The position numbers were made by a program, and so were the translations under genes. 64,000 nucleotides of DNA from Acidobacteriota bacterium (GTDB taxonomy: Bacteria; Acidobacteriota; Aminicenantia; Aminicenantales; Saccharicenantaceae). A model generated the notes under the pieces. The model was not told where the DNA came from, ran no database searches, and saw nothing but the letters and a program-made list of their open reading frames with translations. Location of the stretch: positions 261-64,260 of the forward strand of contig JAKLEN010000005.1 of NCBI GenBank assembly GCA_022711665.1, in the 5' to 3' direction. The stretch's first letter is position 1. Each line of letters begins with the position of its first letter. Of this stretch, positions 6,887 through 58,665 are shown in pieces.

Positions 6887-6975
6887 GCCGGTGTGGCGGA
6901 ACTGGCAGACGCGCGGGACTCAAAATCCTGTGCCCAGAAATGGGTGTGTGGGTTCGATTCCCTCCACCGGCACCA
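6887..6975 (+). tRNA. tRNA-Leu with anticodon CAA
   Basis: GCCGGTG...CACCGGC forms a 7-bp acceptor stem, followed by the discriminator A and an encoded CCA. The anticodon loop is CUCAAAA. A long variable arm is present, as is the T-arm GGTTCGATTCC. Confidence 0.85.
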
Positions 6976-8657: not shown

Positions 8658-8765
8658 GTTCCCGCCCCGGGGCATCATCCCTCGAAAGGCGCGCCGCGGG
8701 GCTCTCGGCTTTTCCCGGCCCGTCCGCGATCCCCTTAATCGGGATGATCCCTGGATTCCGGCGCC

Positions 8766-11225
8766 TTGGACGTGCTAACATGGATTCGAAGGGCGGGAAA
8801 CCGGATAAAAAACCGAACGATGGCCTCCGTGGTGGTCGGCCTGTTCATGGTGTCGTTCTCCCTTCTCTCGCTGGAGATCGCCTTTACCAGGGTCCTTTCG
8901 GTCCTGCTGTCGTACCATTATGTCTTCCTCGCGATCTCTCTCGCCTTGATGGGATTGGGGCTGGGAGGGCTTTGGGCTCACTTTGCCGGGCCGCGGGCGG
9001 CGGGCCCGAACGGAGGCTCGAGATCCCTTTCTCTCCAGGCCAGTCTCTATGCCTTCTGCGTCGCCGCCTCGCCGCTCCTGATCATCTTCGTCAGCCGGCA
9101 GGAGAGGATCCGGGACAACGTCCTGATATTCGGCCTGATCCTCTTTTTGCCCTTCCTCCTGGCCGGCAGGGTCGTCGCGGAGGTCTTCCGCGCGTTTTCC
9201 GCCATGAGCGCCCGGCTGTACGGAGCCGATCTGGCCGGGGCGGCCGCCGCCGCGGTCGGGGCGGTCCTGACCCTGAACGCCTTCGGCGGAATGACCGCCG
9301 TTTTCTTTTTAGCCGTGATCGCTTCCGCGGCGGCCCTTCTCTTCGCCCTGGCCGGCCGCGGCGGGAAGAAAGGGCCCGTCCTGCCTCCTCTCGCGGCCCT
9401 GGCGCTCTCGATCGTTCTCCTGGCCGCGGGCTCGAGCGGCCGTTTGGCGGCCGGTCTGGAGGTCGGGGCCAACCCGGCCAAGGAGATCCATGACGTCCTC
9501 TCCAGGCCGGAGTTCAGAGGGAAGATCGTCGAATCCAGGTGGAGCGCTTTCGGGCGGACCGATCTCGTCGAGTTCGAAGGCTACCCCGATCAGATGGAGA
9601 TCTATCTGGACGGCACCGCCGGGACGCCGATGTACCGGTTCTCAGGATCGGCGGCTGACCCCGATCCGGCTGTCCGCAGGCTTCGGACCTCGTTTTCGGG
9701 GTACTTTCCCTTCCTCTTCCTGAAGGAGAACGAGCGGGACGACGGCCTGATCATCGGGCCGGGAGGAGGCCGGGATATCCTCGTGATGCTCCTGGGTGGA
9801 GTGAAGAGGATCACGGCCGTCGAGGTGAACGGCGATCTCGTGGATATCGTCCGCGGCCAGGCCCGGTACAACGGCGGCATCTATTCCGGCCTGGCGAATG
9901 TCCGGATCGCCGTCGACGATGGAAGGAGCTTCCTGAAGCGTCAGAGAGGCCGGTACGACCTGATCATGCTCAGTCTCCCCGTCACCGCCACCAGCCGGAG
10001 CCTCGAAGGGTTCGCCCTGACCGAGAACTATCTCTTCACCGCGGATTCCATCAAGGACTACGTCGGCCATCTGACCGACGAAGGGCGCCTGATCGTCGTC
10101 TGCCACGGCGATGCCGAAGTCTCGCGGCTCCTGATCCTCGCGCTCTCGGCGCTTAAAGATACGGCCATCGGCCAGGCGGAAGCGATGACGCGCATCTGCG
10201 TCCTGGGCTCGGAGAAATACCCCGTCTTCGTCCTGAAGAAGACGCCCTTCGATCCGGAGGTCGCGTCCTCCATGGCCGATTCCCTCGGATCTTTCGGGGT
10301 CCGCCTGGACGCGTCCTATTTTCCCTACATCGGAAAAGAGGAGACGCGGAGATCCATGCTCACGGCCCTGGGCGACGGCCGGCTGAGCCCGCAGGGTTTC
10401 GAGGAAAAGATCCGCGCCCTCGGCTATGACGTCGGTCCGGTGTCGGACGACCGGCCTTTCTTTTACAAGCTCGAGCCGGGGCTGCCGAAGGCCGTCTCGC
10501 GGGGGCTCTGGATCTCCGCTCTCCTGGCGTTCGTCGCCCTGGCCGCGCCGCTCCTGCGCCGCGGAACGGGGCGGGACCCTGCGCCGCGGGATCCCCGGTT
10601 CATCGTCCTGTTCTCGCTGCTCGGCCTGGGGTTCATGCTGGTCGAGATCTCCCTGATCCAGAGATTCGTGCTTTTTCTCGGGCGGCCCGTTCTCTCGATC
10701 TCGGTCATCCTGTTTGCGCTCCTGGCGGGCGCCGCGGCGGGCAGCCTGCGCAGCGGCAGGGTCGCGGCGGGCCGCTTGACCGCAAGCCTGGCCCGGGCCT
10801 CGCTCGCCGTCTTCGCGGTCATCCTGGTCTTCAGCGCCGCTCTGCCTCCGGTCCTCGGGCACGTCCTGGGATCGAGCCTGCCGCTTCGCCTGATCATGAC
10901 CGCCGTCCTTCTCGTCCCCTTGGGTTTCTTCATGGGTTTCCCTTTTCCCCTGGCCCTCAGGGCGCTGGAGGCGAAGAACGCCGGGGATCTCATCCCCTGG
11001 ATGTGGGGATTGAACGGCGTCTGCTCCGTCCTCGGCTCGACGGCGGCCGTGGCCATCGGCATCCTGGCGGGATTCAGCCGGGCCTTCCTCGCCGGGGGAT
11101 TCTGCTATCTCGCGGCCTTCGCGTTGTTCGCCGTATCCCGGCCGGCGCCCGCCCGGCCGGCCCGTAGCGGACTCTTGGGAGCGGAGGTCAGGATCACGGC
11201 CGAGGGCTCGAGGCCGGGATCCTGA
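8766..11225 (+). CDS. polytopic membrane protein with a central spermidine-synthase-like (PABS/aminopropyltransferase-like) domain
   Basis: It has more than 10 TM helices and the signature GPGGGRDILVMLLGGVKRITAVEVNGDLVD...DLIMLSLP. The true start may be the ATG at 8820. The last ~30 codons and the stop are encoded by repeat copy 2. Confidence 0.7.
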   Translation: MDVLTWIRRAGNRIKNRTMASVVVGLFMVSFSLLSLEIAFTRVLSVLLSYHYVFLAISLALMGLGLGGLWAHFAGPRAAGPNGGSRSLSLQASLYAFCVAASPLLIIFVSRQERIRDNVLIFGLILFLPFLLAGRVVAEVFRAFSAMSARLYGADLAGAAAAAVGAVLTLNAFGGMTAVFFLAVIASAAALLFALAGRGGKKGPVLPPLAALALSIVLLAAGSSGRLAAGLEVGANPAKEIHDVLSRPEFRGKIVESRWSAFGRTDLVEFEGYPDQMEIYLDGTAGTPMYRFSGSAADPDPAVRRLRTSFSGYFPFLFLKENERDDGLIIGPGGGRDILVMLLGGVKRITAVEVNGDLVDIVRGQARYNGGIYSGLANVRIAVDDGRSFLKRQRGRYDLIMLSLPVTATSRSLEGFALTENYLFTADSIKDYVGHLTDEGRLIVVCHGDAEVSRLLILALSALKDTAIGQAEAMTRICVLGSEKYPVFVLKKTPFDPEVASSMADSLGSFGVRLDASYFPYIGKEETRRSMLTALGDGRLSPQGFEEKIRALGYDVGPVSDDRPFFYKLEPGLPKAVSRGLWISALLAFVALAAPLLRRGTGRDPAPRDPRFIVLFSLLGLGFMLVEISLIQRFVLFLGRPVLSISVILFALLAGAAAGSLRSGRVAAGRLTASLARASLAVFAVILVFSAALPPVLGHVLGSSLPLRLIMTAVLLVPLGFFMGFPFPLALRALEAKNAGDLIPWMWGLNGVCSVLGSTAAVAIGILAGFSRAFLAGGFCYLAAFALFAVSRPAPARPARSGLLGAEVRITAEGSRPGS

Positions 11226-44939: not shown

Positions 44940-45299
44940 ATGGCGACACCCCTGATTATTAAAACCCGCGAAGTCTCGAGCATCGTCGTCTTCGATATCG
45001 AAGGCGAGATCAGCCGCCAGGACACGCCCCAGGTCACGCTCTCCAGCCTGGTCCAGGACGAGCTCGATCGCGGCCGGCGCAACATCCTCCTCGATCTCTC
45101 CGGCGTGGGCTTCATCGACAGCTACGGCGTCGGCGAGATCCTGGCCAGCTATAAATCCATCCAGAACCTCGGCGGCAGGCTCAAGCTCTGCCGGATCTCG
45201 CCCAAGCTCCTCCTGATCTTCAAGATCACCGGGCTCGACCGGGTCCTCGACATCCGTGAGGACTGCAGCCGGGCCCTGGAGAGCTTCAGCCAGGCCTGA
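44940..45299 (+). CDS. STAS-domain anti-sigma-factor antagonist (SpoIIAA/RsbV-like)
   Basis: The 119-aa protein has the conserved phosphorylatable serine context LDLSGVGFIDSYGVGEI. Confidence 0.8.
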   Translation: MATPLIIKTREVSSIVVFDIEGEISRQDTPQVTLSSLVQDELDRGRRNILLDLSGVGFIDSYGVGEILASYKSIQNLGGRLKLCRISPKLLLIFKITGLDRVLDIREDCSRALESFSQA

Positions 45300-45328
45300 T
45301 CTTCGGGGCGCCGGAGAGGGGAGGCCGC

Positions 45329-47884
45329 GTGACCGACGGCCGGCTCGAACGCCTGTTGCGGGGCTTCGGCGACGTCCGGGGCCGCGAAGCCCGGGCGGCC
45401 CTGGCCCTGTCGGCCTACTTCTTCCTGATCACGGCCGCCTTCTATATCATCAAGCCGGTCAAGGAGAGCCTGCTCATCGGCATCCATCCGGCCTGGTGGT
45501 CGTACGCCGACCTGGCCACGGCCCTGCTCATCGGCTTCGTCGTCGCCCTCAACGCCAGGCTCCTCGACCGCCTGCCGCGGCGCACCTATCTCACGGCCTC
45601 GCTCCTGTTCTTCGTGGCCAGCCTGCTCGTTTTCTGGCTCGTCTTCGACATGATCCGGACGAGCCAGGTCCAGACGCCCGTGGCCGACTCTTCGGGCATC
45701 CTCTTCCTCCTCTGGGCCCAGACGGTCATCCTCAGGGCGCCGCTCGTTCCGGTCATCGTCTTCAGCTTCTGGGCCGACGTGTTCATCGCCATGGCCGTGA
45801 CCCAGTTCTGGATCGCCGTCAACGACGTCCTCCACGCCCACCAGGCCAAGCGGCTGGTCGGCCTGTTCGTCACGGGAGGCCTGGTCGGCGGCATCGCCGG
45901 AGCGGCCATCGCCTTCCTGGCCACCACGCTCAAGGCCGTCAAGGTCGAGACCCTGCTCCTCGTCTGCCCAGTCCTGCTCCTCCTGGCCCTGGTGACGGTC
46001 AACTTCGTCTACGCCGGGCGCCAGAGGATCGACGCCGCGGCCGGGGACGGGCGCATCGGCCCGGCGGCCGGGGCCGGCGCCCCGGCCGGGTTCGGCCAGG
46101 TCCTCCGGCACCGCTACCTCCGGCTCCTGGCGGCCATGCTGGCCTCGGCCATCCTGGCCGGGACCCTGATCAACTACCAGTTCAAGACGGCCGTCAAGAG
46201 CGCCTATCCCGGCGACCAGGCCCGGACCTCCTACATCGCCGGCTTCCTGCTCGTCATCCTGGCCGTCTCGACCGTCTTCCACCTCCTGACGACCGACCGC
46301 TTCCTCAAGACCTATGGCATCCGCTGGGCCATCTCGCTCGCGCCGCTGGCCCTGCTCCTCGGCTCGGCGGCCGTCTTCGTCATCCCGGCCGTCCTGGCGC
46401 TGCCCTGGGCCTCGCTCGTCCGGGGGGCCGACAAGGGCTTCGACAACACCCTCAGCCAGTCCGTCCGCGAGCTCCTCTACATCCCTGTGCCGGCGGACGT
46501 CAAGTACCGGGCCAAGATCTTCATCGACATGTTCGTCAGCAAATTCGCCACCGGCTGCGGCGCCCTGGTGTTCCTGGGCCTGCGGGCCGTCCGCAATTTC
46601 GATTACCGCGCCGGCCAGGACCTGGCTATCCTCCGCGAGATCGGCGTGCTGACCGTCGCCGCCGTCCTCGTCTGGCTGGTCCTGACCCGCCTGGTCTATC
46701 GCGAGTACCCGGCCGTCCTGAAGCAGCCCATCCGCCGCAAGTGGACCCCGGCCGACGAGGTCATCCGCGAGCACGTCGACGAGGACCTGACCCTCAAGGT
46801 CTTCAATACCATCCAGAGCCGGGAGCGGAGCACGACCCTCTATCTCATGAACATCTTCGACCTGGTCCGGCGCCGGGACCTGACCCCCGACCTCAGGGGC
46901 CTGCTCGGGCTCAAGAGGGACGAGATCAAGGCCCGGGGCATGGACGCCCTCTTCGATGTCGGCGGCGCGGCCTTCTTCCCCGGGCTCGAGGAGGCCGTCG
47001 ACGATCCGGCCTTCCGCCGGGAGATCGAGCTCGTCTTCCTCCTGCCGGTCTACCAGGAGATCATGGCCCAGCGGCTGGGAGAGATGGCGGCCTCCCCGGC
47101 CGAGCTCGACCGCATCGAGGTGGCCAAGCTCATTGGCCGCATGGTCCCCAACCCGCCCACGATCGAGGCCCTGGGCCGGCTGCTGCGGGACCCCTCGGCG
47201 GAGGTCGCCCTCTACGCCCTGGAGAGCGCCGCCGTGCACCGCCACCCCGGCCACGTGCCCCTGATACTGGATCAGCTGGCCAATCCCATGCTCCGGGCCG
47301 CGGCCCAGACGGCGTTGGCCGCCTACGGGCCGGGCGTCGCGGCCCTGGTCGCCCCGGCCCTGGCTTCGGACGGGACGCCCGTCGAGATCCGCCGGGCCCT
47401 GCCCGAGGTCCTGGCCCGCCTCGGCACCCAGACCGCCGCCGACATCCTGCTCGACGGGCTGGGCCGCCGCGACGAGGCCCTGGAACAGGCCCTGGTCGAC
47501 GCCCTGGCCAAGATCCGGCTCGACCGGCCCGAGATCCGCTTCTCCCACAAGGCGGTCCGGCTGGAGCTGCTGGGCCTCGTCCGGAGGACCTGCGAGATCG
47601 TCCTGGACCCGCCGGCCGGCCCGCCGGCCGAGGCCAGGGCGCTACTCGATATCCGGCTCAAGCGGGTCTTCGACCTCCTGACGCTCCTCTACCCGCCGGA
47701 GGACATCGTCAAGGCCTACCAGAATATCCTGCAGGGGACGGCCCAGTCGACCGACTACTCGCTCGAGCACCTGGACATGCTTCTCGACCGGGAGCTCAAG
47801 GGCCTGCTCCTGCCCCTGGTCGACGCCGGCCTGTCGCCCGAGGAGCGGGCCCAGCGCCTGCGCCGGGCCCTGAGGTTGAAATGA
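45329..47884 (+). CDS. TLC-family (ATP/ADP-translocase-like, Npt-type) transporter domain fused to C-terminal HEAT/PBS-lyase-like repeats
   Basis: A GTG start is preceded by GAGAGGGGAGG. The N-terminal ~440 aa is polytopic, with the TLC-like opening motif FFLITAAFYIIKPVKESLLI. The C-terminal ~400 aa consists of Leu/Ala-rich repeats. Confidence 0.7.
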   Translation: MTDGRLERLLRGFGDVRGREARAALALSAYFFLITAAFYIIKPVKESLLIGIHPAWWSYADLATALLIGFVVALNARLLDRLPRRTYLTASLLFFVASLLVFWLVFDMIRTSQVQTPVADSSGILFLLWAQTVILRAPLVPVIVFSFWADVFIAMAVTQFWIAVNDVLHAHQAKRLVGLFVTGGLVGGIAGAAIAFLATTLKAVKVETLLLVCPVLLLLALVTVNFVYAGRQRIDAAAGDGRIGPAAGAGAPAGFGQVLRHRYLRLLAAMLASAILAGTLINYQFKTAVKSAYPGDQARTSYIAGFLLVILAVSTVFHLLTTDRFLKTYGIRWAISLAPLALLLGSAAVFVIPAVLALPWASLVRGADKGFDNTLSQSVRELLYIPVPADVKYRAKIFIDMFVSKFATGCGALVFLGLRAVRNFDYRAGQDLAILREIGVLTVAAVLVWLVLTRLVYREYPAVLKQPIRRKWTPADEVIREHVDEDLTLKVFNTIQSRERSTTLYLMNIFDLVRRRDLTPDLRGLLGLKRDEIKARGMDALFDVGGAAFFPGLEEAVDDPAFRREIELVFLLPVYQEIMAQRLGEMAASPAELDRIEVAKLIGRMVPNPPTIEALGRLLRDPSAEVALYALESAAVHRHPGHVPLILDQLANPMLRAAAQTALAAYGPGVAALVAPALASDGTPVEIRRALPEVLARLGTQTAADILLDGLGRRDEALEQALVDALAKIRLDRPEIRFSHKAVRLELLGLVRRTCEIVLDPPAGPPAEARALLDIRLKRVFDLLTLLYPPEDIVKAYQNILQGTAQSTDYSLEHLDMLLDRELKGLLLPLVDAGLSPEERAQRLRRALRLK

Positions 47885-47902
47885 CCGGACGCGTCATCTA
47901 GA

Positions 47903-49603
47903 ATGACGGCGGAGAGAACGCCCATGGCCAACCTTTACATCTACCCGAAGTCGGGGGAGCCCTCGACCTTCCCGCTGGCCGGGCGCCGCGTCACAGTCGG
48001 CCGCTCATCGGCCAACGACATCGTCCTGTCCGACCAGTTCAGCTCGGGCGTCCACGCCGTCATCGCCCCGACCGAGCACGGCTACGCCCTCATCGACCAG
48101 GGCAGCAAGAACGGCACCTTCGTCAACGGCCGGCGCGTCAACGGCGAGATCGACCTGGCCCGGGGCGACGAGATCCTGATCGGCTCGACCCGCTTCTTCT
48201 TCGACAAGGATTTCCAGCCGCCCGTCGAGACCGTCGAGGGCACGACCTTCACCCACAGCTCGAACACGATCATCCAGGTCAAGGACATCCTCAGGAAGAC
48301 GCCGGGGACCGGGGTCATCATGAAGACGCCTGGCGGCGGGCTCGACCTGGAGCGCCTGCAGAAGGACCAGAAGACGAGCTCGGTCCTGACGGCCGTCAGC
48401 CAGGCCCTGATCTACCACATGCCGCTGGAGAAGCTCCTCGGCCACATCATGGACGTCCTCATCCAGCACCTGCCGATGGACCGCGGCGTCCTGATGATCA
48501 AGAACGAGGCCACCGAGGCCCTCGAGCCCAAGGTCGTCCGCATCCAGAACGGCGCCCTGCGGAACCAGAGCATCTTCGTCAGCCAGACCATCGTCCGGAC
48601 GGCCCTGGAGCGCAACTCGGCCATCCTCATCTCCGACATCCAGGCCGACGAGGACCTGCGCGAGCAGTTCAGCGTCATCCAGGCCCGGATCCACTCGGCC
48701 ATGTGCGTGCCCCTTTGGAACAACCAGGACATCATCGGCCTCATCTACTGCGACCGGGCCTCGCTCCTGGAGCAGTTCAGCGAGGACGACCTGCGGCTGC
48801 TGACCCTTCTCGGCAACCTGGCCGCGGTCAAGATCGAGAACGCCCGTCTCTATGAACAGGCCCTGGAGAAGGCCCGCCAGGACCGCGAGCTGGCCCTGGC
48901 CACCCAGATCCAGATGAACTTCCTGCCCCGGACCGACCCCGACTTCGCCCCCTACGAGGTCAGCGGCAGCGCCCGGGCCTGCCGCCATGTCGGCGGGGAC
49001 TATTTCGACTATATCGCCGTCGACAAGGACCGCCTGGCCCTGGTCATCGCCGACGTCTCGGGCGTCGGCGTCAGCGCCTCGTTGCTCATGGCCTCGCTGC
49101 GGGGCGGCCTGCACGAGCGCTTCCCGGGCGTCATCGACCTGGCCCAGGTGGCTTCCCACCTGAACGATTTCGTCTACGCCAGCTCGGACAGCCATCTGTT
49201 CATCTCCTTCTTCCTGGCCATCCTCGACCGGACCCGGGACGAGCTCAGCTACGTCAACGCCGGCCACAATCCGCCCCTCGTCGTCGGCCGCAAGGGCCCG
49301 GCCAAGTCCCTGGAGACGACCGGGCTGTGCCTGGGCATGTTCCCCGGCCAGGCTTACCGTGAGGAGAAGGCCGGGCTGGCCCCCGGCGACATCCTCTGCC
49401 TCTACACGGATGGCATCGTCGAGAGCCGGGCCGGGGGCGGCGAGGAATACGGCGAGAAGCGCCTGGCCGACAAGGTCCGGGAGCTGCGCGGCCGCCCGGC
49501 CCGGGAGATCCGCGACCGGCTCTTCGAGGACGTCTTCGCCTTCAGCGCCTGCGACGAAGCCGGCGACGACATGACACTCGTCGTCGTCAAGCGGAACCCA
49601 TGA
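47903..49603 (+). CDS. FHA-GAF-PP2C (SpoIIE/RsbU-type) serine phosphatase
   Basis: The FHA domain (RVTVGRSSANDIVLSD...GTFVNGRRV) is followed by a GAF-like middle region and the PP2C motifs (GGDYFDY, DVSGVG, YTDGIVE). The alternative start is the ATG at 47924. Confidence 0.8.
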   Translation: MTAERTPMANLYIYPKSGEPSTFPLAGRRVTVGRSSANDIVLSDQFSSGVHAVIAPTEHGYALIDQGSKNGTFVNGRRVNGEIDLARGDEILIGSTRFFFDKDFQPPVETVEGTTFTHSSNTIIQVKDILRKTPGTGVIMKTPGGGLDLERLQKDQKTSSVLTAVSQALIYHMPLEKLLGHIMDVLIQHLPMDRGVLMIKNEATEALEPKVVRIQNGALRNQSIFVSQTIVRTALERNSAILISDIQADEDLREQFSVIQARIHSAMCVPLWNNQDIIGLIYCDRASLLEQFSEDDLRLLTLLGNLAAVKIENARLYEQALEKARQDRELALATQIQMNFLPRTDPDFAPYEVSGSARACRHVGGDYFDYIAVDKDRLALVIADVSGVGVSASLLMASLRGGLHERFPGVIDLAQVASHLNDFVYASSDSHLFISFFLAILDRTRDELSYVNAGHNPPLVVGRKGPAKSLETTGLCLGMFPGQAYREEKAGLAPGDILCLYTDGIVESRAGGGEEYGEKRLADKVRELRGRPAREIRDRLFEDVFAFSACDEAGDDMTLVVVKRNP

Positions 49604-50043
49604 TAACGGAGCGGGGGAGGGCCGTGATCGGACCGGAGCCGCGGGAGCTGCGGGTCCCGGCCCGGATCACGGAGGTCGACCGCATCAGGGCCTTCCTCCG
49701 CGAGGCCATCGCCGGCCTGCCGCTCGACGAGGAGGACCGGCTCCGGGTCGAGCTGGCCCTCCACGAGATCTGCGTCAACATCGCCCGCTACGCCTATCCC
49801 CGGGGCCGCAAGGGGGACATGATCGTCCGCATCTGGCAGGATGGCGACTCCCTCTACGTCGAGGTCCGGGACTCGGGCATACCCTTCAACCCCGTCCGCA
49901 AAAAGAACCCCGACCTGAAGGTCAAGCTGCGCCGCGGCCTCCCCGGCGGCCTGGGCGTCTACTTCTTCAAGACGCTCATGGACGGCCTGTCGTACCGGCG
50001 GGCCGGCGGCCAGAACATCCTGACAGTCCGCAAGGCCCTCTGA
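49600..50043 (+). CDS. anti-sigma regulatory factor / serine protein kinase of the RsbW/SpoIIAB family (GHKL ATPase fold)
   Basis: It overlaps the upstream stop (ATGA). The HATPase_c motifs are EICVNIARYA and DSGIPFNP...GGLGVYF. Confidence 0.75.
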   Translation: MITERGRAVIGPEPRELRVPARITEVDRIRAFLREAIAGLPLDEEDRLRVELALHEICVNIARYAYPRGRKGDMIVRIWQDGDSLYVEVRDSGIPFNPVRKKNPDLKVKLRRGLPGGLGVYFFKTLMDGLSYRRAGGQNILTVRKAL

Positions 50044-50898
50044 TCAATAGAGGACCTTGGCCTCGCCGTTGACCTTGATCAGCCGGCCGATCTCGTCCAG
50101 GACGAGGTCCCGGCGGACCAGGACGGCCCGGATCTCCTCGTCGGTCAGGTAGGCGCCGACGGCCGAGCGGACGGCGGCGAAGTCGAGGGCCCTGACCCTG
50201 GCCACCACGGCCCGGGGCAGCTCGCTCATGAGCTTCGGCCCGTCGGGCGACTTGGCCGAGTAGAGGAGGCTCCTGAGGAAGCGGCCCGAGGTCCGGAACG
50301 AGCGCGAGTGGTCGATCAGCACCATCCGCCAGTCGGCGGTGATCAGGATCTGGTTCAGGTGCCGGTCCTCGTTGGCGATGAGGTTGTCGAAGAGCCGCTG
50401 GAGGTAGGTGGCCCGGTTCCAGGCCGGGACCTGCCGCGGCGGGATCTTGAGGCCCCGGTCCTCCTTGTCCCGCAGCGACATGCAGCCGTCGACCCAATAC
50501 TGGCAGGACCCCCGCTCGTCGCGGAAGCGGCGCTCGACGGTGGGCGGCACCAGCTCCAGGCCGAGGAGCTTGTCCAGGCGGTAGGCGGCGATCTCGTACT
50601 GCCAGCCCTCCCAGTAGCCGCCCATGCGGCCCTGGGCGTTCTTCCACAGCCCGCGGTGCCTGACGCCGCCGAGCTCGAGCATCAGGACCCAGGGGGAGGT
50701 CACTGCTTCGGCGCCCGTCATCTGCCGACTCTCGCTCTCGACGACCACGGCCTCCGCCAGGAAAGCCTCCCAGCGGCCGCGCTGGGCCAGGTCCTCGGCC
50801 CGGAACTGCGGCGGCGCGGCCGGGTCCTCGCAGCCGGCCGGGAGGGCGGCCGCCAGGGCCGCGGCCAGGGCCAGGATGACGGCCGACCGCGGGCTCAA
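50044..50898 (-). CDS. exported lipoprotein with an atypical-kinase-like domain (PI3/PI4-kinase-like catalytic-loop signature DRHxN...IDHS), paralogue 1
   Basis: A TTG start is preceded by GGAGG. The lipobox is LPAGC. WKNAQG...WQYEIAAYRLDKLLGLELVPP resembles the PI3K Lys/alphaC region. IANEDRHLNQILITADWRMVLIDHSRSF has the spacing of the PI3K DRHxxN...IDFG motif. The kinase assignment is an inference from motifs, not from a search. Confidence 0.6.
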   Translation of the reverse strand: MSPRSAVILALAAALAAALPAGCEDPAAPPQFRAEDLAQRGRWEAFLAEAVVVESESRQMTGAEAVTSPWVLMLELGGVRHRGLWKNAQGRMGGYWEGWQYEIAAYRLDKLLGLELVPPTVERRFRDERGSCQYWVDGCMSLRDKEDRGLKIPPRQVPAWNRATYLQRLFDNLIANEDRHLNQILITADWRMVLIDHSRSFRTSGRFLRSLLYSAKSPDGPKLMSELPRAVVARVRALDFAAVRSAVGAYLTDEEIRAVLVRRDLVLDEIGRLIKVNGEAKVLY

Positions 50899-51725
50899 TA
50901 GACAACCTCCTGGCCCTGTTCCCCGATCATCCGGGCGATCTCCCGGACGAGCAGGTCGCGGCGGGACAGGACGGCCCGGATCTCCCGGTCAGTGAGGGTC
51001 GCGCCGACGGCGGCGCGGATGTTGTCGAAGGTCAGCGTGCCGATCCGGTCGACGAACCAGCGGGGCAGGCGCCGGAAAAGGAACGGCTCCCCGGCGTCCC
51101 CTCTCTTGATGCCGTCGCGGCCGAACATCAGCCGCTTGGAGAATTCGCCGCCGCTGCGGAAGGCCCGGGAGTGGTCGAAGAGGATCATCCGCCAGTCCTC
51201 GGTGTAGAGTATATTCTGCTGGGTCCGGTCTTCGTTGGCGATCAGGCTGTCCCAGGCCCGGGCCAGGTACTTCATCTTTTCCGTGCGGTCCTGGGCCTCG
51301 TCCGGGATGCGGATGCCTTCCTCCACGAGCTTGAGCAGGCTGTATTTATTCTCGGCCCAAAGGACCAGGGCGCCCTTCCGGCCCCGGAAGGTGCGCTCGA
51401 CGGCCGGCGGGACCATGTTCAGCCCCAGGAGCTTGTCCAGGCGGTAGGCGGCGATCTCGTACTGCCAGCCTTCGAGATGGCCGTTCTGCAGGCCGCGGGG
51501 GTTCTTCCAGGCGGCCTTGCGCTCGACGCCGTCCTTCTCCAGGTAGAGCCGCCAGGGACGGGTCACGCCTTCGCCGATCTCCTCCGAGCGGACGATCCGG
51601 GCCGTCAGCAGGAAGTCCTCCATGGCCGCCCGCCGGGCGACCTCTTCGGCCGTGAACTGGGCGGAGGCGACGGACGGCCAGGCCGCCGCCAGGACCAGGG
51701 ACAGGAGAACGAGGGATCGTTTCAT
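50895..51725 (-). CDS. exported protein with the same atypical-kinase-like domain, paralogue 2 (catalytic His replaced, DRTQQN)
   Basis: A signal peptide ...VASA|QF is followed by WQYEIAAYRLDKLLGLNMVPP and IANEDRTQQNILYTEDWRMILFDHSRAF. The start is TGAATG-coupled to the upstream gene. Confidence 0.6.
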   Translation of the reverse strand: MKRSLVLLSLVLAAAWPSVASAQFTAEEVARRAAMEDFLLTARIVRSEEIGEGVTRPWRLYLEKDGVERKAAWKNPRGLQNGHLEGWQYEIAAYRLDKLLGLNMVPPAVERTFRGRKGALVLWAENKYSLLKLVEEGIRIPDEAQDRTEKMKYLARAWDSLIANEDRTQQNILYTEDWRMILFDHSRAFRSGGEFSKRLMFGRDGIKRGDAGEPFLFRRLPRWFVDRIGTLTFDNIRAAVGATLTDREIRAVLSRRDLLVREIARMIGEQGQEVVY

Positions 51726-53180
51726 TCAGGCCTCCCCGGCGGCCGCGTCCGTGGCCGCTTTCCGCCCGGCGTAGGCGGGAATGATCTTGAGGCAGATCGC
51801 CAGGAGCACGATGACTGCGACGACGTTGAGAAGGGCGAAGCGCTCGACCGGCAGGCCCAGGAGCCCGGTGCCGATAAGGACGGCCAGGGCCGAGAGCGTG
51901 TCTCCGCCGCGGACGAAGAACGTATCGATGGCCGCCTTGGCCTTGTACTTCTCCTCGCGCCGGGTGACAAGGAACAGGGCGGCCTTGGTCGTGTTCTGGA
52001 GGGAATAGTCGGTGCCGTTCTCCAGGGCCTTGACCCAGCGGACCAGGCCCAGGACGGCGCCGAAGGAGATGAGGGCGTAGCCGCCCAGGGCGAGCAGGGG
52101 CAGGACGAGCAGGGCCCCGTTGACGCCGATCCATTTGAAGATGCGCGAGACGAGGAAGAGCTGGATGACCAGGGCGATCAGGTTGGTCAGGAACTGGTAG
52201 TCCATGAAGGCGTCGTGGATGGCTTTCTCCGCCGGCTCGTTGGCCCCTTCCGGCGCCGGCGACGGAGCCGAGGCCGCGGAGGGGCCGGCGATCGACCGGT
52301 TGACCGTGGCCGTGGTGATGATGTACTCCCCGGTCGCGTTGACGAAATTGTAGAGCCCGATCATGAGCGCGATGAGCAGCAGGTAGCGGTTGCGGAAGAC
52401 GAGCCTGAAGCCGCCTCCGGCCCGGAGCGGCATCTCCTGGGTCTCGGCCCGGGCCCCGGCGCCGGCCTGGCCCCGTTCCCGGGCCGCCGCGACGGCCCGG
52501 ACCTCGCGGCGGTGGATATGCCGGGCCAGGAGGATGCAGACGAAAAGGATGATCCCGGCCAGGAGCATCAGCTTGAACTCCCAGTGGCTCCCCAACAGGT
52601 CCCGCAGCCGTTTCATGAACGGCAGCGTGGCCACCAGGCCGCCGGAGGTCGCTCCCAGGGCCACCAGCGGGAAGGCCCGCTTGCCGGCCTCGTCGGAGTA
52701 GAGGTCGTTGGCGAAACCCCAGAATTGGGCGATGACGAAATAATTGAAGATGCCGATCCAGATGAAGAACAGGATGCCCATGGGCCTGACGGCCATCCCG
52801 CCGAGGTCGAGCAGGTAGAACAGGGCCAGGTTGGAGATGAAGAAAGACGTCGTCCAGGTGATCAGCACGTGGCGCGGCACCCTGGAGGACAGGCGGCTGA
52901 AGGCCTTGACGACGAAGACGAAGAGCACCGCCTGGGCCCCGCTCAGGCAGCTCTTGACGACGGCCGAGTCCTTGTCCACGAGGAGGAGCGCCTCGCGCAG
53001 GGGCTTGAGGATATAGTAGGCCAGGAGCAACAGGAAGACGTTCAGGCCCAAGAGCAGGGCCTTGGGCGCCTCGCCTGGCCGGATGTCGGCGAAGAGCCGC
53101 AGGAACCGGTAGCCCGGGCTGTAGCGCTGCGGCGGCGCGACCGCGGCCGCCGCCTCGAGACGATCGGGCATTGGCGCCAT
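51726..53180 (-). CDS. TLC-family (ATP/ADP-translocase-like, Npt-type) membrane transporter
   Basis: It has 11-12 TM helices. KALLLGLNVFLLLLAYYILKPLREALLLVD matches the TLC N-terminal signature (K..L.LM.F.ILFNY.ILR..KD.L.V). It is paralogous to the N-terminal domain of 45329..47884. The likely true start is the ATG at 53171, which sits 9 nt after GGAGG. Confidence 0.7.
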   Translation of the reverse strand: MAPMPDRLEAAAAVAPPQRYSPGYRFLRLFADIRPGEAPKALLLGLNVFLLLLAYYILKPLREALLLVDKDSAVVKSCLSGAQAVLFVFVVKAFSRLSSRVPRHVLITWTTSFFISNLALFYLLDLGGMAVRPMGILFFIWIGIFNYFVIAQFWGFANDLYSDEAGKRAFPLVALGATSGGLVATLPFMKRLRDLLGSHWEFKLMLLAGIILFVCILLARHIHRREVRAVAAARERGQAGAGARAETQEMPLRAGGGFRLVFRNRYLLLIALMIGLYNFVNATGEYIITTATVNRSIAGPSAASAPSPAPEGANEPAEKAIHDAFMDYQFLTNLIALVIQLFLVSRIFKWIGVNGALLVLPLLALGGYALISFGAVLGLVRWVKALENGTDYSLQNTTKAALFLVTRREEKYKAKAAIDTFFVRGGDTLSALAVLIGTGLLGLPVERFALLNVVAVIVLLAICLKIIPAYAGRKAATDAAAGEA

Positions 53181-53192
53181 CCTCCGGCCCGG

Positions 53193-55058
53193 TCAGAACA
53201 GGACCCGGGCCTCGCCCAGGGTCCGGATCAGGCTGCGGATCTTGCGGATGAGAAGCGTCCGGCGGGCGTTGAGGGCCTCGATCTCTTCCCGGCCGAGGTA
53301 GGGACTCAGGTAAGCGGCGACGGCCTTGCCGTCCCAGGCCTGGAGGCGGGAGTAGAGGGCCCTGGAGCAGCTCCGGACCTGGCAGCCCGAGCCCTCGCCC
53401 TTGTCCGGGGCGAAGGCCTCGGAGAAGTCGACCCGATAGATCCGTTCGTCGCCCTCCCGGACGAGCGTGTCCTTGTCCCGGCGGCAGTCGTCGTTGACCA
53501 GGGCCTGGAAGACGGTCAGGTCGGCCAGGGCCCGCTCGAAGGCCTGGCGGTCCCTTGGCTCGATCCCGGCCTCCCGCCGCTCGGCCAGCGAACGGGCGCC
53601 GGAGACGAACGCCTGCACGGCCCCGGCGACGCCCTCGACCGTTCGTTCGACGATCGGCGGCACGGCTTCGATGTCGAGGTATGTGCTCAGGGCGTAAGCG
53701 GCCAGGTCGTAGCGCCAGCTGTCGGCCAGGGAGTCGGGCCGCCGCCGGTCGATGTACTTGAACAGGGCCGGCCGGGAGAACCCCTCCGATTCGAGGGTCA
53801 GGCGCCAGGCATCGGTGCGGCCGCCGACGCCGGGACCGCGGCCCGTGACGGCGGCGGTCCGCAGGAACGTCTCCATCTCCCGCGGCGACAGGGGCCGCGG
53901 CGGGGGCGGCCGGATGCCGCTGCGGGCGGCCACTTCCTCCGTCTCGCCCCAGACCTTGAACTCGCCGCGCTCATAGACCAGGGCCGAGGGGATGCCGCCG
54001 TAGCTGCCGGAGATGCCCGTGTCCATTATCCAGACCTTGTCCTGGAACCGGGTGACGCGGCTCTTCTCGACGACGGCGCTCGAGCCGTGGTTGAAGCGGA
54101 AGTAGTTATGGCCGATGACCATGGCCCTGGCGCCCAGGTTGGCCAGGGTCCGGTCAATCTCGGCCTGGGCCGCGGCCTCGCTCTTGGTGGCCAGGCCCCG
54201 GAACCAGAGAGGGCTGTCGGGGTCGTAGACGAGCCGGGGATGGAACGGCTTGCCGTAATCCTGGGGGTTGCGCATGCGCCCCTGGAAGAATTGGAGCTCG
54301 GTGCGTATGACTTGGTTGATCTCCCGGAGGGGCCACTTGGAGACGGCCTCGCTGATCCCGCCGTGGACGTAAACGATGTCGTCGATCTTGATGACCGAGT
54401 TCTGCCGCACCAGCCAGTCGCCGCAGGCCTTGTTGAAGCCCAGAATGTAGGCCCGGCGGGCCTCGGGGTCCCTGGCGGTCAGGGCCTTGTGCCAGAATCC
54501 GGCCAGGTCCTCGTCGGCATAGATGTCGAGGCCTTCGATCTCGGCCTTGCGGCGCTCCTCGGCCGGGAGCGTCCTGAGGAATTCCGCCTCCCGCTTGCGG
54601 CGGAAGTCCGCCGGCAGGAAGGCCACGAACTGCTCGACGGGCACGTAATCCGGATAGTCCAGGACTATGCCGGTGATGTTCATCTCCTCATGGTTGCCGA
54701 GGAGCATGTGGACGGCGCCGCCGGCTTCGGCCGCTTCGCCCTGCAGCCGCCGGATGAGATCGAGGATGTCCTTGGCCCGCGGGCCCCGATCCAGGACATC
54801 GCCGAGCTGGACGAGGTGGGTCCGGCCCCCGATCCAGTGGAGCGAAGCGTCGACCAGCCCGATCTGGGGATGGGCCAGGATGAAGACGAAGCGGTCGTAG
54901 TCGCCATGGAGGTCGGCCACGGCCACGACCCGGTCGACGCCGGTCCATTGATAGGGGATCTCGTCGGCCGGGGCGGGGCGGACCAGGAGGGCGAGGGCCA
55001 GCGCCAGCCCCGAAAGGAAGGGACGCAGCTCCGGACGGCCTTTTCTGCGGCGGAACAT
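53193..55058 (-). CDS. exported fusion protein: PPP-family metallophosphoesterase (ApaH/PrpA-like) N-terminal domain plus a degenerate atypical-kinase-like C-terminal domain (paralogue 3)
   Basis: A signal peptide is followed by the MPP motifs DLHGDYDRF, GDVLDRGP and GNHEEMN. The C-terminal domain (AAYALSTYLDIEAVPPIVER...LVNDDCRRDKDTLVRE...VDFSEAF) aligns to the other two paralogues with catalytic residues lost. Confidence 0.65.
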   Translation of the reverse strand: MFRRRKGRPELRPFLSGLALALALLVRPAPADEIPYQWTGVDRVVAVADLHGDYDRFVFILAHPQIGLVDASLHWIGGRTHLVQLGDVLDRGPRAKDILDLIRRLQGEAAEAGGAVHMLLGNHEEMNITGIVLDYPDYVPVEQFVAFLPADFRRKREAEFLRTLPAEERRKAEIEGLDIYADEDLAGFWHKALTARDPEARRAYILGFNKACGDWLVRQNSVIKIDDIVYVHGGISEAVSKWPLREINQVIRTELQFFQGRMRNPQDYGKPFHPRLVYDPDSPLWFRGLATKSEAAAQAEIDRTLANLGARAMVIGHNYFRFNHGSSAVVEKSRVTRFQDKVWIMDTGISGSYGGIPSALVYERGEFKVWGETEEVAARSGIRPPPPRPLSPREMETFLRTAAVTGRGPGVGGRTDAWRLTLESEGFSRPALFKYIDRRRPDSLADSWRYDLAAYALSTYLDIEAVPPIVERTVEGVAGAVQAFVSGARSLAERREAGIEPRDRQAFERALADLTVFQALVNDDCRRDKDTLVREGDERIYRVDFSEAFAPDKGEGSGCQVRSCSRALYSRLQAWDGKAVAAYLSPYLGREEIEALNARRTLLIRKIRSLIRTLGEARVLF

Positions 55059-55066
55059 CCTATTCC

Positions 55067-55095
55067 TTTATAGCCGCTTTCGGGCGGTTCTTCAA
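55067..55095 (-). promoter_or_regulatory. sigma70-type promoter (TTGAAG-N17-TATAAA) 8 nt upstream of the ATG of the kinase-like operon
   Basis: The minus strand reads TTGAAGaaccgcccgaaagcggcTATAAAggaataggATG. Confidence 0.45.
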
Positions 55096-55192
55096 GTCCT
55101 GCCGGGGGTTTGACTCGCCGGCGCGCCTCCTGATATCCTGCCCCCATCAGGGACCGGACAGGGGCCTTCCGGAGCGGACGGCCGCCTCCCCG

Positions 55193-56587
55193 ATGAAAGG
55201 ACTCGCGACCATGAGACAACGAACGGATCTCGCGGCGGGGGGCCGGCGGGGGAGGGGACCGGCGGCCCGCCTGGCGCTGGCGGCCGGTCTGGCGGCGGTC
55301 CTGGGGCTGGCCCTGGCGTCCTGCGCCGGTCGGGAGAGGCCGGCCGGGCCCGGGACGACGGCGGCCGCGGCCCGGGTCAAGCCCGGCGTCGAGGTTTTCC
55401 TGGAGAAGCACCTCGACCTGGTCAAGGGCAAGCGGGTCGGCTTGATAACAAACCAGACCGGCACGGACGCCGGGCTGCGTTCGACCGTGGAGCTCTTCCA
55501 GTCCAACCCCGCCATCCGGCTGGTCGCCCTTTACGGCCCCGAGCACGGCGTCCGGGGCGACGCCCAGGCCGGCGTCTACGTGCCGTTCTATTACGACCAG
55601 GCCTATAAGCTGCCCGTATTCAGCCTCTACGGACAATCCTTCAAGCCCGATCCGGGCATGCTCAGGAACATAGACGAGTACATGCGCTCCTTCGACACCC
55701 GGGAGGCGGGCAAGGTGCCGGAGGGGGGCATGGTCAAGGACGTCGACGTGCTCGTCTTCGACATCCAGGACGTCGGGACTCGCGTCTACACCTACGTCGC
55801 CACCATGGCCTACGCCATGCAGGCCGCGGCCGAGGCCGGGCTCGACTTCATCGTCCTGGACCGGCCTGCGCCGATCAACGGCGTCGACATGGAAGGGGCC
55901 ATCCTCGAGTACCCGGAGCTCAGCTCGTTCATCGGGCTGTTCCCGATCCCGCTGCGGTTCGGCATGACGGCCGGCGAGCTGGCCCGCCTGTTCAACGACA
56001 AGTTCCTGGCCCGCACGGCCAAGCTGACGGTCATCCCCGTGGAGGGCTGGTCGCGGTCGATGTGGTTCGACGAGACCGGGCTGCCGTGGGTCATCCCCTC
56101 GCCCAACATGCCGACCCTGGACACGGCGACCGTCTACCCCGGTCTGGTGGCCATCGAGGGCACCAACCTGTCGGAGGGCCGGGGCACGACCCGGCCGTTC
56201 GAGCTCTTCGGCGCGCCGTGGCTCGACGGCCACGCCCTGGCCGCCCGGCTGAACGCCCTCGGCCTGCCGGGGGTCCGCTTCCGGGAAGCCTGGTTCACGC
56301 CGTCCTTCTCCAAGTTCCAGGGCGAGCTCTGCGGCGGCTGCCAGATTCACGTGACCGACCGGACGGCCTTCCGCCCGGTGGCCACAGTCCTTCACATCAT
56401 CAGGACGGTGCGGGACGCGGCCCCGGGCAAGTTCGCCTTCCACGCCGATTACTTCGACAAGGTCATGGGCACGGCCTCCGTCCGCAAGGCCCTGGAAGCG
56501 GGGACGGACGTGGCCGCCATCCTGGAGAGCATGCGGCCCGGCCTGGAATCTTTCGCCGCTTTGCGCCGGGCTTATCTGCTCTATTAA
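55193..56587 (+). CDS. DUF1343-family lipoprotein (NamZ-like exo-beta-N-acetylmuramidase family)
   Basis: The lipobox is LASCAG. KRVGLITNQTGTD, the conserved DUF1343 N-terminal motif, is present. Confidence 0.7.
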   Translation: MKGLATMRQRTDLAAGGRRGRGPAARLALAAGLAAVLGLALASCAGRERPAGPGTTAAAARVKPGVEVFLEKHLDLVKGKRVGLITNQTGTDAGLRSTVELFQSNPAIRLVALYGPEHGVRGDAQAGVYVPFYYDQAYKLPVFSLYGQSFKPDPGMLRNIDEYMRSFDTREAGKVPEGGMVKDVDVLVFDIQDVGTRVYTYVATMAYAMQAAAEAGLDFIVLDRPAPINGVDMEGAILEYPELSSFIGLFPIPLRFGMTAGELARLFNDKFLARTAKLTVIPVEGWSRSMWFDETGLPWVIPSPNMPTLDTATVYPGLVAIEGTNLSEGRGTTRPFELFGAPWLDGHALAARLNALGLPGVRFREAWFTPSFSKFQGELCGGCQIHVTDRTAFRPVATVLHIIRTVRDAAPGKFAFHADYFDKVMGTASVRKALEAGTDVAAILESMRPGLESFAALRRAYLLY

Positions 56588-57093: not shown

Positions 57094-58665
57094 ATGACGA
57101 TGAACTCTCCCCGTTACGCCCTGGCCAACCCCCTGTCTCTTGTCCTGGACAAGCCGGCCGCCGATTTTACCCGGGCGGACCTGCTCAAGGTCGTCGAGGC
57201 CCGGCAGATCGAGCGCGTCACCTTTCATTACCTGGCTATCGACGGCAAGCTCAAGGAACTGACCATCCCGGTGACCGACCGCTATCACCTGGACGCCGTC
57301 CTGGCCGAGGGGGAGCGGGCCGACGGCTCGTCGCTGTTCAAGGGCATGGTCGATATGGGCCTGTCGGACCTCTACATCGTGCCCGTCTACCGCTCGGCCT
57401 TCTTCAATCCCTTCGATGAGGGCAGCCTGGACTTCGTCTGCCGCTATCTCGCCCAGGACGGCTCGCCGGCCTCCTTCACCTATGACGGCATCCTGGCCCG
57501 GGCCGCGGCCCTGTTCCGCAAGGTCTCCGGCCTGGAACTCCAGGCCATGGGCGAGCTCGAGTTCTACCTGCTGACGACGCCCGCCGACCGCTCCTACCCG
57601 GTCGAGGACCACCGGGGCTATCACGGCTCGGCGCCGTTCGCCAAGAGCGGCCCCATCCTCCACGAGATGGTCCGGCACATCGCCTCGGTCACCGGCGCGG
57701 TGAAATACGCGCATTGCGAGAACGGCGTCATCGATCCCGTCCGCAGCGACCTGGCCGAGATCAACGGCCGCCTGGCCGAGCAGCTCGAGATCGAGTTCGT
57801 GCCCCGGCCCGTCGAGGAAGCGGCCGACGACCTCGTCCTCGGCCGCTGGATCATCCGCAACACCGCCTTCCGGCACGGGGCCGTGGCCACCTTCACGCCC
57901 AAGCTCGAGGAGGGCATCGCCGGCAGCGGCCTGCACTTCCACCTGGCCCTGGCGAAGGACGGGCGGAACATCATGCGCGCCCCGGACGGCCGGCTCTCGA
58001 CCGAAGCTCGCAAGCTCGTCGGCGGCCTGTGCCAGTACGCCGACTCCCTGACGGCCTTCGGCAACACAGTCTCGTCGGCCTACCTGCGTCTGGTCCCCAA
58101 TCAGGAAGCGCCGACCCGCATCTGCTGGAGCGACCTCAACCGCAGCGCCCTCATCCGCGTCCCCCTCGGCTGGTCCGGCGTCGCCGGCCTAGCCCGCCGG
58201 GTCAACCCGGCCGAGAGCCAGGACTTCGTCGACGACCGCGGCGGCCGGCAGACCGTCGAGATCCGCAGCCCGGACGGCAGCGCCCTCATCCACCTGACCC
58301 TGGCCGGGATCGCCATGGCCGCCAACTGGGCCTTCGGCGGCGACCGCTCCCTGTTCAGGGACTCCGGCCCGCTCGAGCTGGCCGAGAGCCTGTATGTCAA
58401 GGGCAACATTTTCGCCGATACCGAGCTGCTCAAGCGCCTGCCCGTCCTGCCGGCCAGCTGCGTCGAGTCCAGCCGGGTCCTGCTGGCGAAGCGCGGCCTC
58501 TACGAGCGCGACGGGATCTTCCCGCCGTCGGTCATCGATTACGCGGCCCGCAGGCTCGAGGCCGAGGACGACGAGTTCATGAACAAGCGCCTGTCCGATC
58601 TGCCGGCCCACGACCGGCTGCACGAGATCCGCAAGATCATGCATAAGGACCTGCACAAGCATTGA
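57094..58665 (+). CDS. glutamine-synthetase-family protein (catalytic-domain type, GSIII/GmaS-like)
   Basis: AAGGAG precedes the start. The GS catalytic motifs GSGLHFHLAL and AYLRLVPNQEAPT are present. Confidence 0.7.
   Translation: MTMNSPRYALANPLSLVLDKPAADFTRADLLKVVEARQIERVTFHYLAIDGKLKELTIPVTDRYHLDAVLAEGERADGSSLFKGMVDMGLSDLYIVPVYRSAFFNPFDEGSLDFVCRYLAQDGSPASFTYDGILARAAALFRKVSGLELQAMGELEFYLLTTPADRSYPVEDHRGYHGSAPFAKSGPILHEMVRHIASVTGAVKYAHCENGVIDPVRSDLAEINGRLAEQLEIEFVPRPVEEAADDLVLGRWIIRNTAFRHGAVATFTPKLEEGIAGSGLHFHLALAKDGRNIMRAPDGRLSTEARKLVGGLCQYADSLTAFGNTVSSAYLRLVPNQEAPTRICWSDLNRSALIRVPLGWSGVAGLARRVNPAESQDFVDDRGGRQTVEIRSPDGSALIHLTLAGIAMAANWAFGGDRSLFRDSGPLELAESLYVKGNIFADTELLKRLPVLPASCVESSRVLLAKRGLYERDGIFPPSVIDYAARRLEAEDDEFMNKRLSDLPAHDRLHEIRKIMHKDLHKH

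Follow-up and report, generated by a model that had tools for sequence, protein, structure and literature searches.

A Predicted Exported Fam20-Like Kinase and Phosphatase Operon with a TLC-Family Transporter in Acidobacteriota: a Possible Extracytoplasmic Phosphorylation Module

Introduction

The present study concerns a four-gene cluster at positions 50044..55058 of a 64,000-nucleotide stretch of DNA (the window; contig JAKLEN010000005.1 of assembly GCA_022711665.1) from an Acidobacteriota bacterium of the Aminicenantes, in which genes for predicted exported kinase-like proteins, one of them fused to a phosphatase, stand together with a gene for a TLC-family transporter. The closest described systems are known for their separate parts. 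On the kinase side, the Fam20 kinases of the eukaryotic secretory pathway have been studied to the level of individual residues, and one member, Fam20A, is a pseudokinase (PMC5865150). Neither this paper on Fam20 structure and evolution (PMC5865150) nor the main Fam20 review (PMC7948968) mentions bacteria or prokaryotes. On the transporter side, the characterised members of the TLC/NTT family all transport nucleotides, and several are ATP/ADP antiporters (PMC5381601). The NTT-HEAT clade described by Major, Embley and Williams in 2017 is monophyletic, widespread in free-living bacteria and often followed by a gene for a cyclic nucleotide monophosphate (cNMP)-binding protein; its function was left unassigned, and cAMP-tuned ATP uptake was suggested (PMC5381601). 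No functional study of NTT-HEAT was found in the literature searched. On the phosphatase side, the nearest solved relative is the cold-active protein-tyrosine phosphatase of Shewanella, which we take to be a secreted or exported enzyme.

A description of a phosphatase, a kinase and an NTT transporter in combination was not found in the literature searched, in agreement with an earlier note on this DNA, which was made by a model from the sequence and knew of no described bacterial system of such composition. The same searches gave nothing relevant on bacterial Fam20 homologues, or on periplasmic or secreted bacterial kinases with an ATP supply, beyond PMC5381601. Herein, we propose that the cluster encodes an extracytoplasmic phosphorylation module, in which a nucleotide transporter would deliver ATP to the periplasm for the reversible phosphorylation of envelope components, a reading to which we give a probability of roughly 45%.

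Results

Identical and near-identical proteins and loci bear Candidatus Aminicenantes names, which places the host in that group. The cluster consists of four minus-strand genes in the order fusion gene (P4), TLC gene, P2 and P1, and all four open reading frames were recovered as follows.

53193..55058, minus strand: P4, predicted exported fusion protein of a phosphatase and a kinase-fold domain (621 residues)
51726..53180, minus strand: HEAT-less inner-membrane transporter of the TLC/NTT family (484 residues; Pfam TLC 2.2e-15)
50895..51725, minus strand: P2, predicted exported stand-alone Fam20-like kinase 2 (276 residues)
50044..50898, minus strand: P1, predicted exported stand-alone Fam20-like kinase 1 (284 residues; TTG start)

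A 12-nt spacer containing GGAGG separates P4 from the TLC gene, the TLC gene meets P2 at a TGAATG junction, and P2 and P1 share a 4-nt overlap of start and stop (TTGA), so that every junction of the tightly coupled operon proposed in the earlier note was borne out. A scan for promoters and terminators gave no internal terminator or gap within 50044..55058, and the layout fits a single translationally coupled operon; a scan across the operon against Rfam gave no match. The three kinase-like domains had been described as paralogous, and indeed P1 shares 48% identity with P2 (E=3e-75) and 31% with the C-terminal domain of P4 (E=2e-23).

Two comparisons point to homology between these kinase-like domains and the Fam20 kinases of the eukaryotic secretory pathway. 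First, the AlphaFold2 model of the domain (pLDDT 88.6) has a kinase-like fold that is nearest to the solved Fam20 structures: among the values listed against solved structures, zebrafish Fam20C scored 19.9, Hydra Fam20B 19.6 and C. elegans Fam20 19.1, compared with 18.7 for PI4K type II alpha, 15.9 for CtkA, 13.2 for actin-fragmin kinase, ~12 for HipA and ~11 for class I/III PI3K, and the C-terminal domain of P4 scored 19.4 with 5xom and 18.8 with 5yh0. Second, a family profile built from 90 diverse stand-alone kinase-like domains matched Fam20A at 5e-16, Fam20C at 1e-11, Fam20B at 2e-10 and C. elegans Fam20 at 1.4e-7, and matched PI4K-II at only 2.5e-4. Aligned to Fam20, this profile covers beta3 and alpha-C as well as the loops for catalysis and metal binding, and it extends through the C-terminal helices. 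The proteins had at first been called PI3K/PI4K-like, with a test of kinase against non-kinase fold suggested; the kinase fold and the atypical-kinase branch proved right, but the nearest family is Fam20.

Matches to single family models were weaker. The window proteins gave no Pfam Fam20C match at E<=0.1, and their single-sequence PDB match had E=0.075; some relatives exceed the Pfam Fam20C cut-off, P0244 among them (29.4 against 26.8 bits), and one of these relatives passes the HipA_2 threshold as well. Against Pfam PI3_PI4_kinase (PF00454), P1 scored 14.4 bits where the cut-off is 27.1 (E=0.037), and a few relatives have a precomputed match to this model; HipA_2 (0.04) and FAM198 (0.02) were the other weak Pfam matches. 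NCBIfam TIGR03843, the SCO1664 family, was matched at 1.5e-11 (P2 6e-6), always under its cut-off, and was rejected as a family assignment, the three domains scoring 44, 26 and 26 bits against a cut-off of 172. The bacterial domain comprises ~250 residues compared with 350-400 in Fam20, and only ~225 of 351-418 target residues align; the full Fam20 architecture, with its N-terminal segment, insertions and conserved disulfides, was not found. Because the domain is shorter and is without these extra segments, the kinase-like domains are treated herein as a bacterial sister family related to Fam20 rather than as strict Fam20 members. The family is large, with 4,084 clusters (50% identity) at E<=1e-3 and 1,652 at E<=1e-10, its named homologues are all from Acidobacteriota, and a tblastn search with one kinase-like domain against 72,556 plasmids gave no match.

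Catalytic residues were assigned following the residue roles established for Fam20 (PMC5865150). P1 contains the full set, namely K86 in beta3, E97 (the acidic residue at position -5), E102 in alpha-C, D178-R-H, N182 and, for metal binding, D196. These residues vary little or not at all among 81 orthologues, and the motifs WK, WQYEIAAYRLDKLLGL, NEDRHLNQILIT and LIDHS, which had been read from the best-preserved copy, are present in P1 and kept in its orthologues. P2 has the same set with the variant loop DRTQQN, and its Lys, DRTQQN and FDHS are kept in 80 orthologues, so the Fam20 catalytic constellation is found in both proteins and their orthologues. The distant phosphatase-kinase fusions of other acidobacterial classes show no variation in the loop N-x-D-R-N-x-x-N or in the I-D-H motif. 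Of the 90 diverse family members, 89 keep the metal-binding Asp, 86 an acidic residue at -5 and 73 the catalytic Asp. The earlier note had made its kinase claim depend on conservation of the DRH..N..D residues; the Lys, the loop Asp and Asn and the metal-binding Asp are conserved in the P1 and P2 orthologues and in the majority of the wider family, and they do not vary in the distant fusions. The kinase-like domain of P4 is different: a Cys stands at the catalytic Asp, the loop is poorly conserved and the Fam20 constellation is incomplete, with the Lys present in ~80% of orthologues, the -5 Asp kept and the Asp of DFS invariant. Because a Cys replaces the catalytic Asp in a degenerate loop, this domain is probably a pseudokinase.

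Atypical kinase folds with non-kinase chemistry exist (cited in PMC7948968), and the domains might carry out AMPylation as SelO does or glutamylation as SidJ does, or might bind a ligand or regulate the phosphatase without catalysis, the transporter then handling the ligand. Such roles would accord with the column of P1 K86 in beta3, which holds K in 53, R in 24 and Q or H in 12 (Q in 9) of the 90 members, with a catalytic Asp missing from 17 of the 90, with the degenerate fused copy in Aminicenantes, and with the pseudokinase status of Fam20A itself (PMC5865150). We consider this explanation distinctly unlikely, since nothing of the Fam20-type constellation, the catalytic base and both metal ligands included, has been lost from P1, P2 or the distant fusions; because of this retention, the simplest explanation appears to be that these proteins have been kept for phosphotransfer. 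The number of paralogues varies within the class: in the Saccharicenans-like Aminicenantes loci L036, L038, L039, L044 and L047, two tandem P2-type genes accompany P1 (e.g. L039 6239-7913), giving four kinase-like domains in each cluster.

The fusion protein P4 was divided into the following parts.

aa 1-31, minus strand: predicted signal peptide (export heuristic)
aa ~34-372, nt ~53943-54959, minus strand: Shelph-type PPP phosphatase domain (Pfam Metallophos 6.5e-9)
aa ~392-621, nt ~53196-53885, minus strand: Fam20-like kinase-fold domain (paralogy and structure comparison)

The phosphatase domain has its closest homology to the Shewanella enzyme (PDB 1v73, E=2.4e-28), and its PPP motifs, D49, H51, G86-D87, D90-R91-G92, G121-N122-H123-E124, H232 and H317, show little or no variation among 90 fusion homologues. 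The metallophosphoesterase recognised earlier therefore stood, but it belongs to the Shelph type instead of ApaH/PrpA.

All three soluble proteins are predicted to be exported behind signal-peptide-like N-termini. Export was assessed with a heuristic that asks for a basic n-region and, after it, a hydrophobic 10-mer. It was satisfied by 114 of 120 P1-type proteins, 118 of 120 Aminicenantes fusions, 70 of 81 distant fusions and 17 of 21 distant single-domain homologues, and by almost all kinase and phosphatase genes that stand alone in split arrangements. P2 carries a predicted Sec signal peptide (...VASA/QF). A canonical lipobox is present in 84 of 120 P1-type homologues, and lipid anchoring is probable in most orthologues of this type. 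The earlier note had placed each of the three behind a Sec or lipoprotein signal; the signal-peptide-like N-termini were found on all three proteins, but the LPAGC lipobox of P1 departs from the usual form, and its closest relatives do not keep the Cys.

The N-terminal segments could alternatively be membrane anchors of a complex on the cytoplasmic face, in which a HEAT domain scaffolds the PPP phosphatase in the manner of the PP2A A subunit and the enzymes regulate the transporter. HEAT scaffolds do bind PPP phosphatases in PP2A (PR65 is discussed in PMC5381601), the cNMP-binding, GAF-PP2C and RsbW-like neighbours described below are cytoplasmic signalling proteins, and export was judged by the heuristic only. 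Nevertheless, the N-termini look like cleaved Sec signals, with basic n-regions, hydrophobic cores of 10-15 residues and A-x-A-like sites, and segments of this kind orient proteins N-in/C-out. In addition, the lipobox Cys occurs in the 84 P1-type orthologues, and the closest solved homologues of both enzymes, Fam20 and, as we take it, the Shewanella phosphatase, are secreted or exported. A cytoplasmic complex is therefore very unlikely in our judgement.

The association of these genes was followed across Acidobacteriota. Among 61 Aminicenantes species loci in which the sequence upstream of the P1 orthologue amounts to 5.5 kb or more, fusion, TLC, P2 and P1 stand in this order in 46, a TLC-family gene accompanies the fusion in 55, and the TLC gene lies between the fusion and the kinase genes in 49. 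Nine distant fusion loci with unrelated flanks were collected from Terriglobia, Thermoanaerobaculia and other Acidobacteriota; a TLC-HEAT gene is adjacent to the fusion or within ~3 kb in eight of them, and the ninth contig stops 0.8 kb downstream of the fusion gene. A small cNMP-binding gene is near in six of these loci (L081, L083, L086, L087, L090 and L091), between transporter and fusion in four. A sample of 38 metagenome contigs of at least 6 kb was divided according to the genes in view as follows.

22 of 38 loci: phosphatase, kinase-like and TLC genes
4 of 38 loci, three of them truncated: phosphatase and TLC genes only (L103, L127, L132, L133)
7 of 38 loci: phosphatase and kinase-like genes only
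5 of 38 loci: phosphatase gene alone

The 22 complete sets show at least five arrangements.

Arrangement 1: TLC-HEAT, cNMP-binding, phosphatase-kinase fusion
Arrangement 2: phosphatase-kinase fusion, TLC-HEAT
Arrangement 3: cNMP-binding (-), phosphatase-kinase fusion, TLC (-)
Arrangement 4: phosphatase, TLC-HEAT, kinase
Arrangement 5: kinase, phosphatase, TLC-HEAT

The kinase-like domain thus recurs beside TLC transporters and metallophosphatases in other genomes, as the earlier note had suggested checking. The adjacency of its homologues to TLC and metallophosphatase genes goes far beyond what shared ancestry explains, and because a constant gene set persists through fusion, fission and permuted order, phosphatase, kinase and TLC transporter very probably form a functional three-component module. 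Were there no functional link, the genes would be neighbours by descent or chance and would act independently; the loci examined do come mostly from one phylum, and some family members have no TLC neighbour. This explanation can nearly be discounted, given that several acidobacterial classes have the three components in fused, split and permuted form between differing flanks, and that the genes are translationally coupled in the window. A reading as a defence system was dropped after the PADLOC models gave no match.

Several further observations were made at these loci. In L041, from a divergent member of the Aminicenantes, the TLC gene and the P2 orthologue are separated by an open reading frame of 281 aa with a signal peptide, which runs on the other strand (6125-6970, minus strand), and similar gaps of ~1.1-1.4 kb occur in L042, L048, L050, L065, L069, L072, L073 and L076. 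A Hanks-type Pkinase gene follows TLC-HEAT in L082 (13959-14786, plus strand), and a DUF5916 gene lies between TLC-HEAT and the fusion in L091 (5327-7630, plus strand); either may be a lineage-specific module member. One Aminicenantes genome, MFD01476.bin.1.151, has two loci: in L034, P2-P1 is accompanied by a TLC gene that lies 5 kb off on the opposite strand, and in L035, a P2-like fragment and a P1-like domain ~150 nt apart give one match of 1,278 nt (7995-9278), perhaps a fusion or a decayed duplicate. The Aminicenantes cluster of P2, P1 and HATPase genes, at 57-58% identity, is also filed under Candidatus Hydrothermarchaeota (L043, JBHIEG010000043.1), probably through a binning or labelling error, and many third-party annotation (TPA) assemblies named 'uncultured Eubacteriales' have the Aminicenantes cluster and are probably mislabelled.

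The operon TLC protein scored 56.9 bits against Pfam TLC (PF03219), well above the cut-off of 21, so that the transporter reported within the operon does belong to the family. A second TLC protein is encoded nearby, in a plus-strand unit of three genes (45329-50043) that is convergent with P1 and ends one base before its stop. These genes and the region upstream of the operon are as follows.

45329..47884, plus strand: TLC-HEAT (NTT-HEAT) fusion transporter (851 residues; Pfam TLC 1.1e-12, HEAT_2 6.8e-8)
47903..49603, plus strand: FHA-GAF-PP2C (SpoIIE) phosphatase (Pfam SpoIIE 3e-46, FHA 1e-18, GAF 4e-15)
49600..50043, plus strand: HATPase_c_2 (RsbW/SpoIIAB-like) anti-sigma-type kinase (Pfam HATPase_c_2 1.4e-27)
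55059..55192, no strand: intergenic region from which the fusion gene and namZ diverge, the presumed operon promoter region

TLC-HEAT scored 48 bits against Pfam TLC and is a paralogue of the operon TLC (26% identity, E=2e-20). It has the NTT-HEAT architecture, followed here by FHA-GAF-PP2C in place of a cNBD gene, and it belongs to the module of the operon; in Aminicenantes the linkage persists even where the gene has changed from one side of the cluster to the opposite one. The gene for FHA-GAF-PP2C is a conserved neighbour in Aminicenantes and sits where other Acidobacteriota have the cNMP-binding gene; co-transcribed with TLC-HEAT, its product is a candidate cytoplasmic regulator. Because a cNMP-binding protein follows TLC-HEAT in those other Acidobacteriota, the GAF domain may be the counterpart of the cNMP small-molecule sensor. 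Of the 70 Aminicenantes loci that extend far enough downstream, 65 have the HATPase_c_2 gene after the P1 orthologue, and the RsbW-like product of this gene is a candidate partner-switching regulator.

Similarity to transporters of established function is weaker. The operon TLC matched the solved NTT 9j3n at E=4.6e-4, with the aligned signatures FWGFAN and KYKAKAAID (KxKAAID). Against TIGR00769, the model of ATP/ADP exchangers, the operon TLC reached 50.3 bits and TLC-HEAT 40.4 bits where the cut-off is 387, a level at which equivalence is not indicated. NTTs import nucleotides in intracellular parasites, and the module could likewise serve nucleotide or phosphate scavenging, the exported phosphatase, perhaps with the kinase-like domain as a nucleotide binder, processing extracellular nucleotides, dinucleoside polyphosphates or phosphoesters and the TLC protein importing the nucleotides so formed. 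The characterised NTTs all act in nucleotide uptake or exchange, cAMP-tuned ATP uptake is what has been proposed for NTT-HEAT (PMC5381601), and phosphatase and TLC genes are adjacent without a visible kinase gene in L103, L127, L132 and L133. However, three of these four contigs are truncated, and scavenging gives no role to the conserved catalytic kinase residues, so that we regard it as unlikely.

In the presumed promoter region 55059..55192, a promoter of the operon was not identified, the sole sigma-70-like match facing the plus strand towards namZ. Divergently upstream of the operon lie genes for NamZ, an exo-beta-N-acetylmuramidase (55193-56587, plus strand), and a glutamine-synthetase-like protein (57094-58665, plus strand), both kept in most Aminicenantes loci; a tie of the module to peptidoglycan recycling is possible. 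Long antisense open reading frames in the window (51171-55073, plus strand, 45149-47548, minus strand, and others, of up to 1,300 aa) were rejected as artefacts of a G+C content of 68-70%, their translations being of low complexity and rich in Gly, Arg, Pro and Asp.

Discussion

Herein, we describe how an extracytoplasmic phosphorylation module would work. First, the TLC transporter would act as a nucleotide exchanger that passes cytoplasmic ATP out to the periplasm and returns ADP. Second, P1 and P2 would use the delivered ATP to phosphorylate envelope or periplasmic proteins or glycans, as Fam20C and Fam20B do with their substrates, and the Shelph domain of P4 would strip the phosphate again. 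The degenerate kinase-like domain of P4 would be a pseudokinase that binds a nucleotide or a partner, in the way that Fam20A activates Fam20C. Third, the cytoplasmic HEAT domain and the cNMP-binding protein would gate the ATP supply, with GAF-PP2C and the RsbW-like kinase taking this part in Aminicenantes. In other words, the gated supply would couple a cytoplasmic signal to the state of phosphorylation beyond the membrane. The proposed supply of nucleotide by the transporter, put forward as speculative in the earlier note, now has strong support from gene association.

Several points weigh against this proposal. The periplasm is generally accepted to be without ATP, and ATP delivered there is expected to leak through the porins of the outer membrane. 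The operon TLC is far from the characterised ATP/ADP exchangers, so its substrate could differ, and a crude hydropathy scan gave 9 and 11 candidate helices in the two TLC proteins with no clear charge bias. Variation of the kind seen at the beta3 position is not usual among active kinases, P4 has no catalytic Asp in its fused domain, and export was judged by the heuristic rather than by SignalP. Finally, the seven metagenome loci with phosphatase and kinase-like genes have no TLC gene in view, and two stand-alone kinase-like genes have none nearby; therefore, module membership is not universal in the family.

Known periplasmic phosphotransfer uses lipid-linked donors, and bacteria are not known to phosphorylate with ATP beyond the cytoplasm. 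The parts of the module belong to known superfamilies, and no account of their combination was found in the literature searched. Since the periplasm is taken to be free of ATP, exported kinases with a nucleotide supply of their own would represent a bacterial system of a new type. We put forward, tentatively and judging the whole less likely to hold than not, that the diderm Acidobacteriota perform reversible ATP-driven phosphorylation in the periplasm or at the surface, fuelled by a gated NTT ATP/ADP exchanger, and that this is a prokaryotic counterpart, possibly the source, of the Golgi Fam20 system and the first function for NTT-HEAT. If this were true, the textbook view of an ATP-free periplasm would be overturned, and a new layer of envelope regulation would be added in a phylum abundant in soil and sediment. 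Partner genes can now be named for NTT-HEAT(-cNBD), whose role in free-living bacteria was posed as a question in 2017 (PMC5381601), and a large bacterial family with detectable homology to metazoan Fam20 bears on the origin of the animal proteins.

The module compares with known systems as follows. By functional analogy, it resembles the kinase system of the eukaryotic secretory pathway. The bacterial family and Fam20 have in common the F-K of beta3, the acidic residue at -5 relative to the alpha-C Glu within (E)IAA(F/Y)xLDxLLG..VPP, the catalytic loop FDxLIxNxDR(H/N), the metal-binding Asp in (L/I)D(N/H)x(R/K)xF and the C-terminal helices; both also have signal peptides, a predicted or known place of work outside the cytosol, and active-kinase as well as pseudokinase paralogues. 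Unlike in Fam20, the bacterial catalytic loop ends in N or Q and not in E, and the bacterial domains have a PPP phosphatase and a transporter of the NTT family as linked or fused partners. PI4K-II alpha/beta, PI3K/PI4K, CtkA and HipA share the DRxxxN catalytic loop with the bacterial family, as the weak PI3_PI4_kinase and HipA_2 matches reflect, but these enzymes are cytosolic, whereas the bacterial family is predicted to be exported, and their profile similarity is much weaker than that of Fam20. The phosphatase domain differs from the Shewanella enzyme (1v73, 2z72; Shelph/SLP) by the Fam20-like fusion and by an insertion of ~50 residues (aa ~130-205). In the NTT-HEAT(-cNBD) systems described previously, a cNMP-binding gene follows NTT-HEAT exactly as it does in the other Acidobacteriota of the present study, but that account draws no tie to exported kinases or phosphatases, and the window operon adds a HEAT-less paralogue (PMC5381601). 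The supply of ATP to the lumen of the eukaryotic endoplasmic reticulum and Golgi follows the same logic as the one proposed here, with kinases in a compartment free of ATP synthesis and a nucleotide exchanger in its membrane. In eukaryotes, lumenal ATP/ADP exchange uses SLC35-type carriers; the transporter family thus differs, being TLC/NTT in the bacterial module, where the supply is purely inferential.

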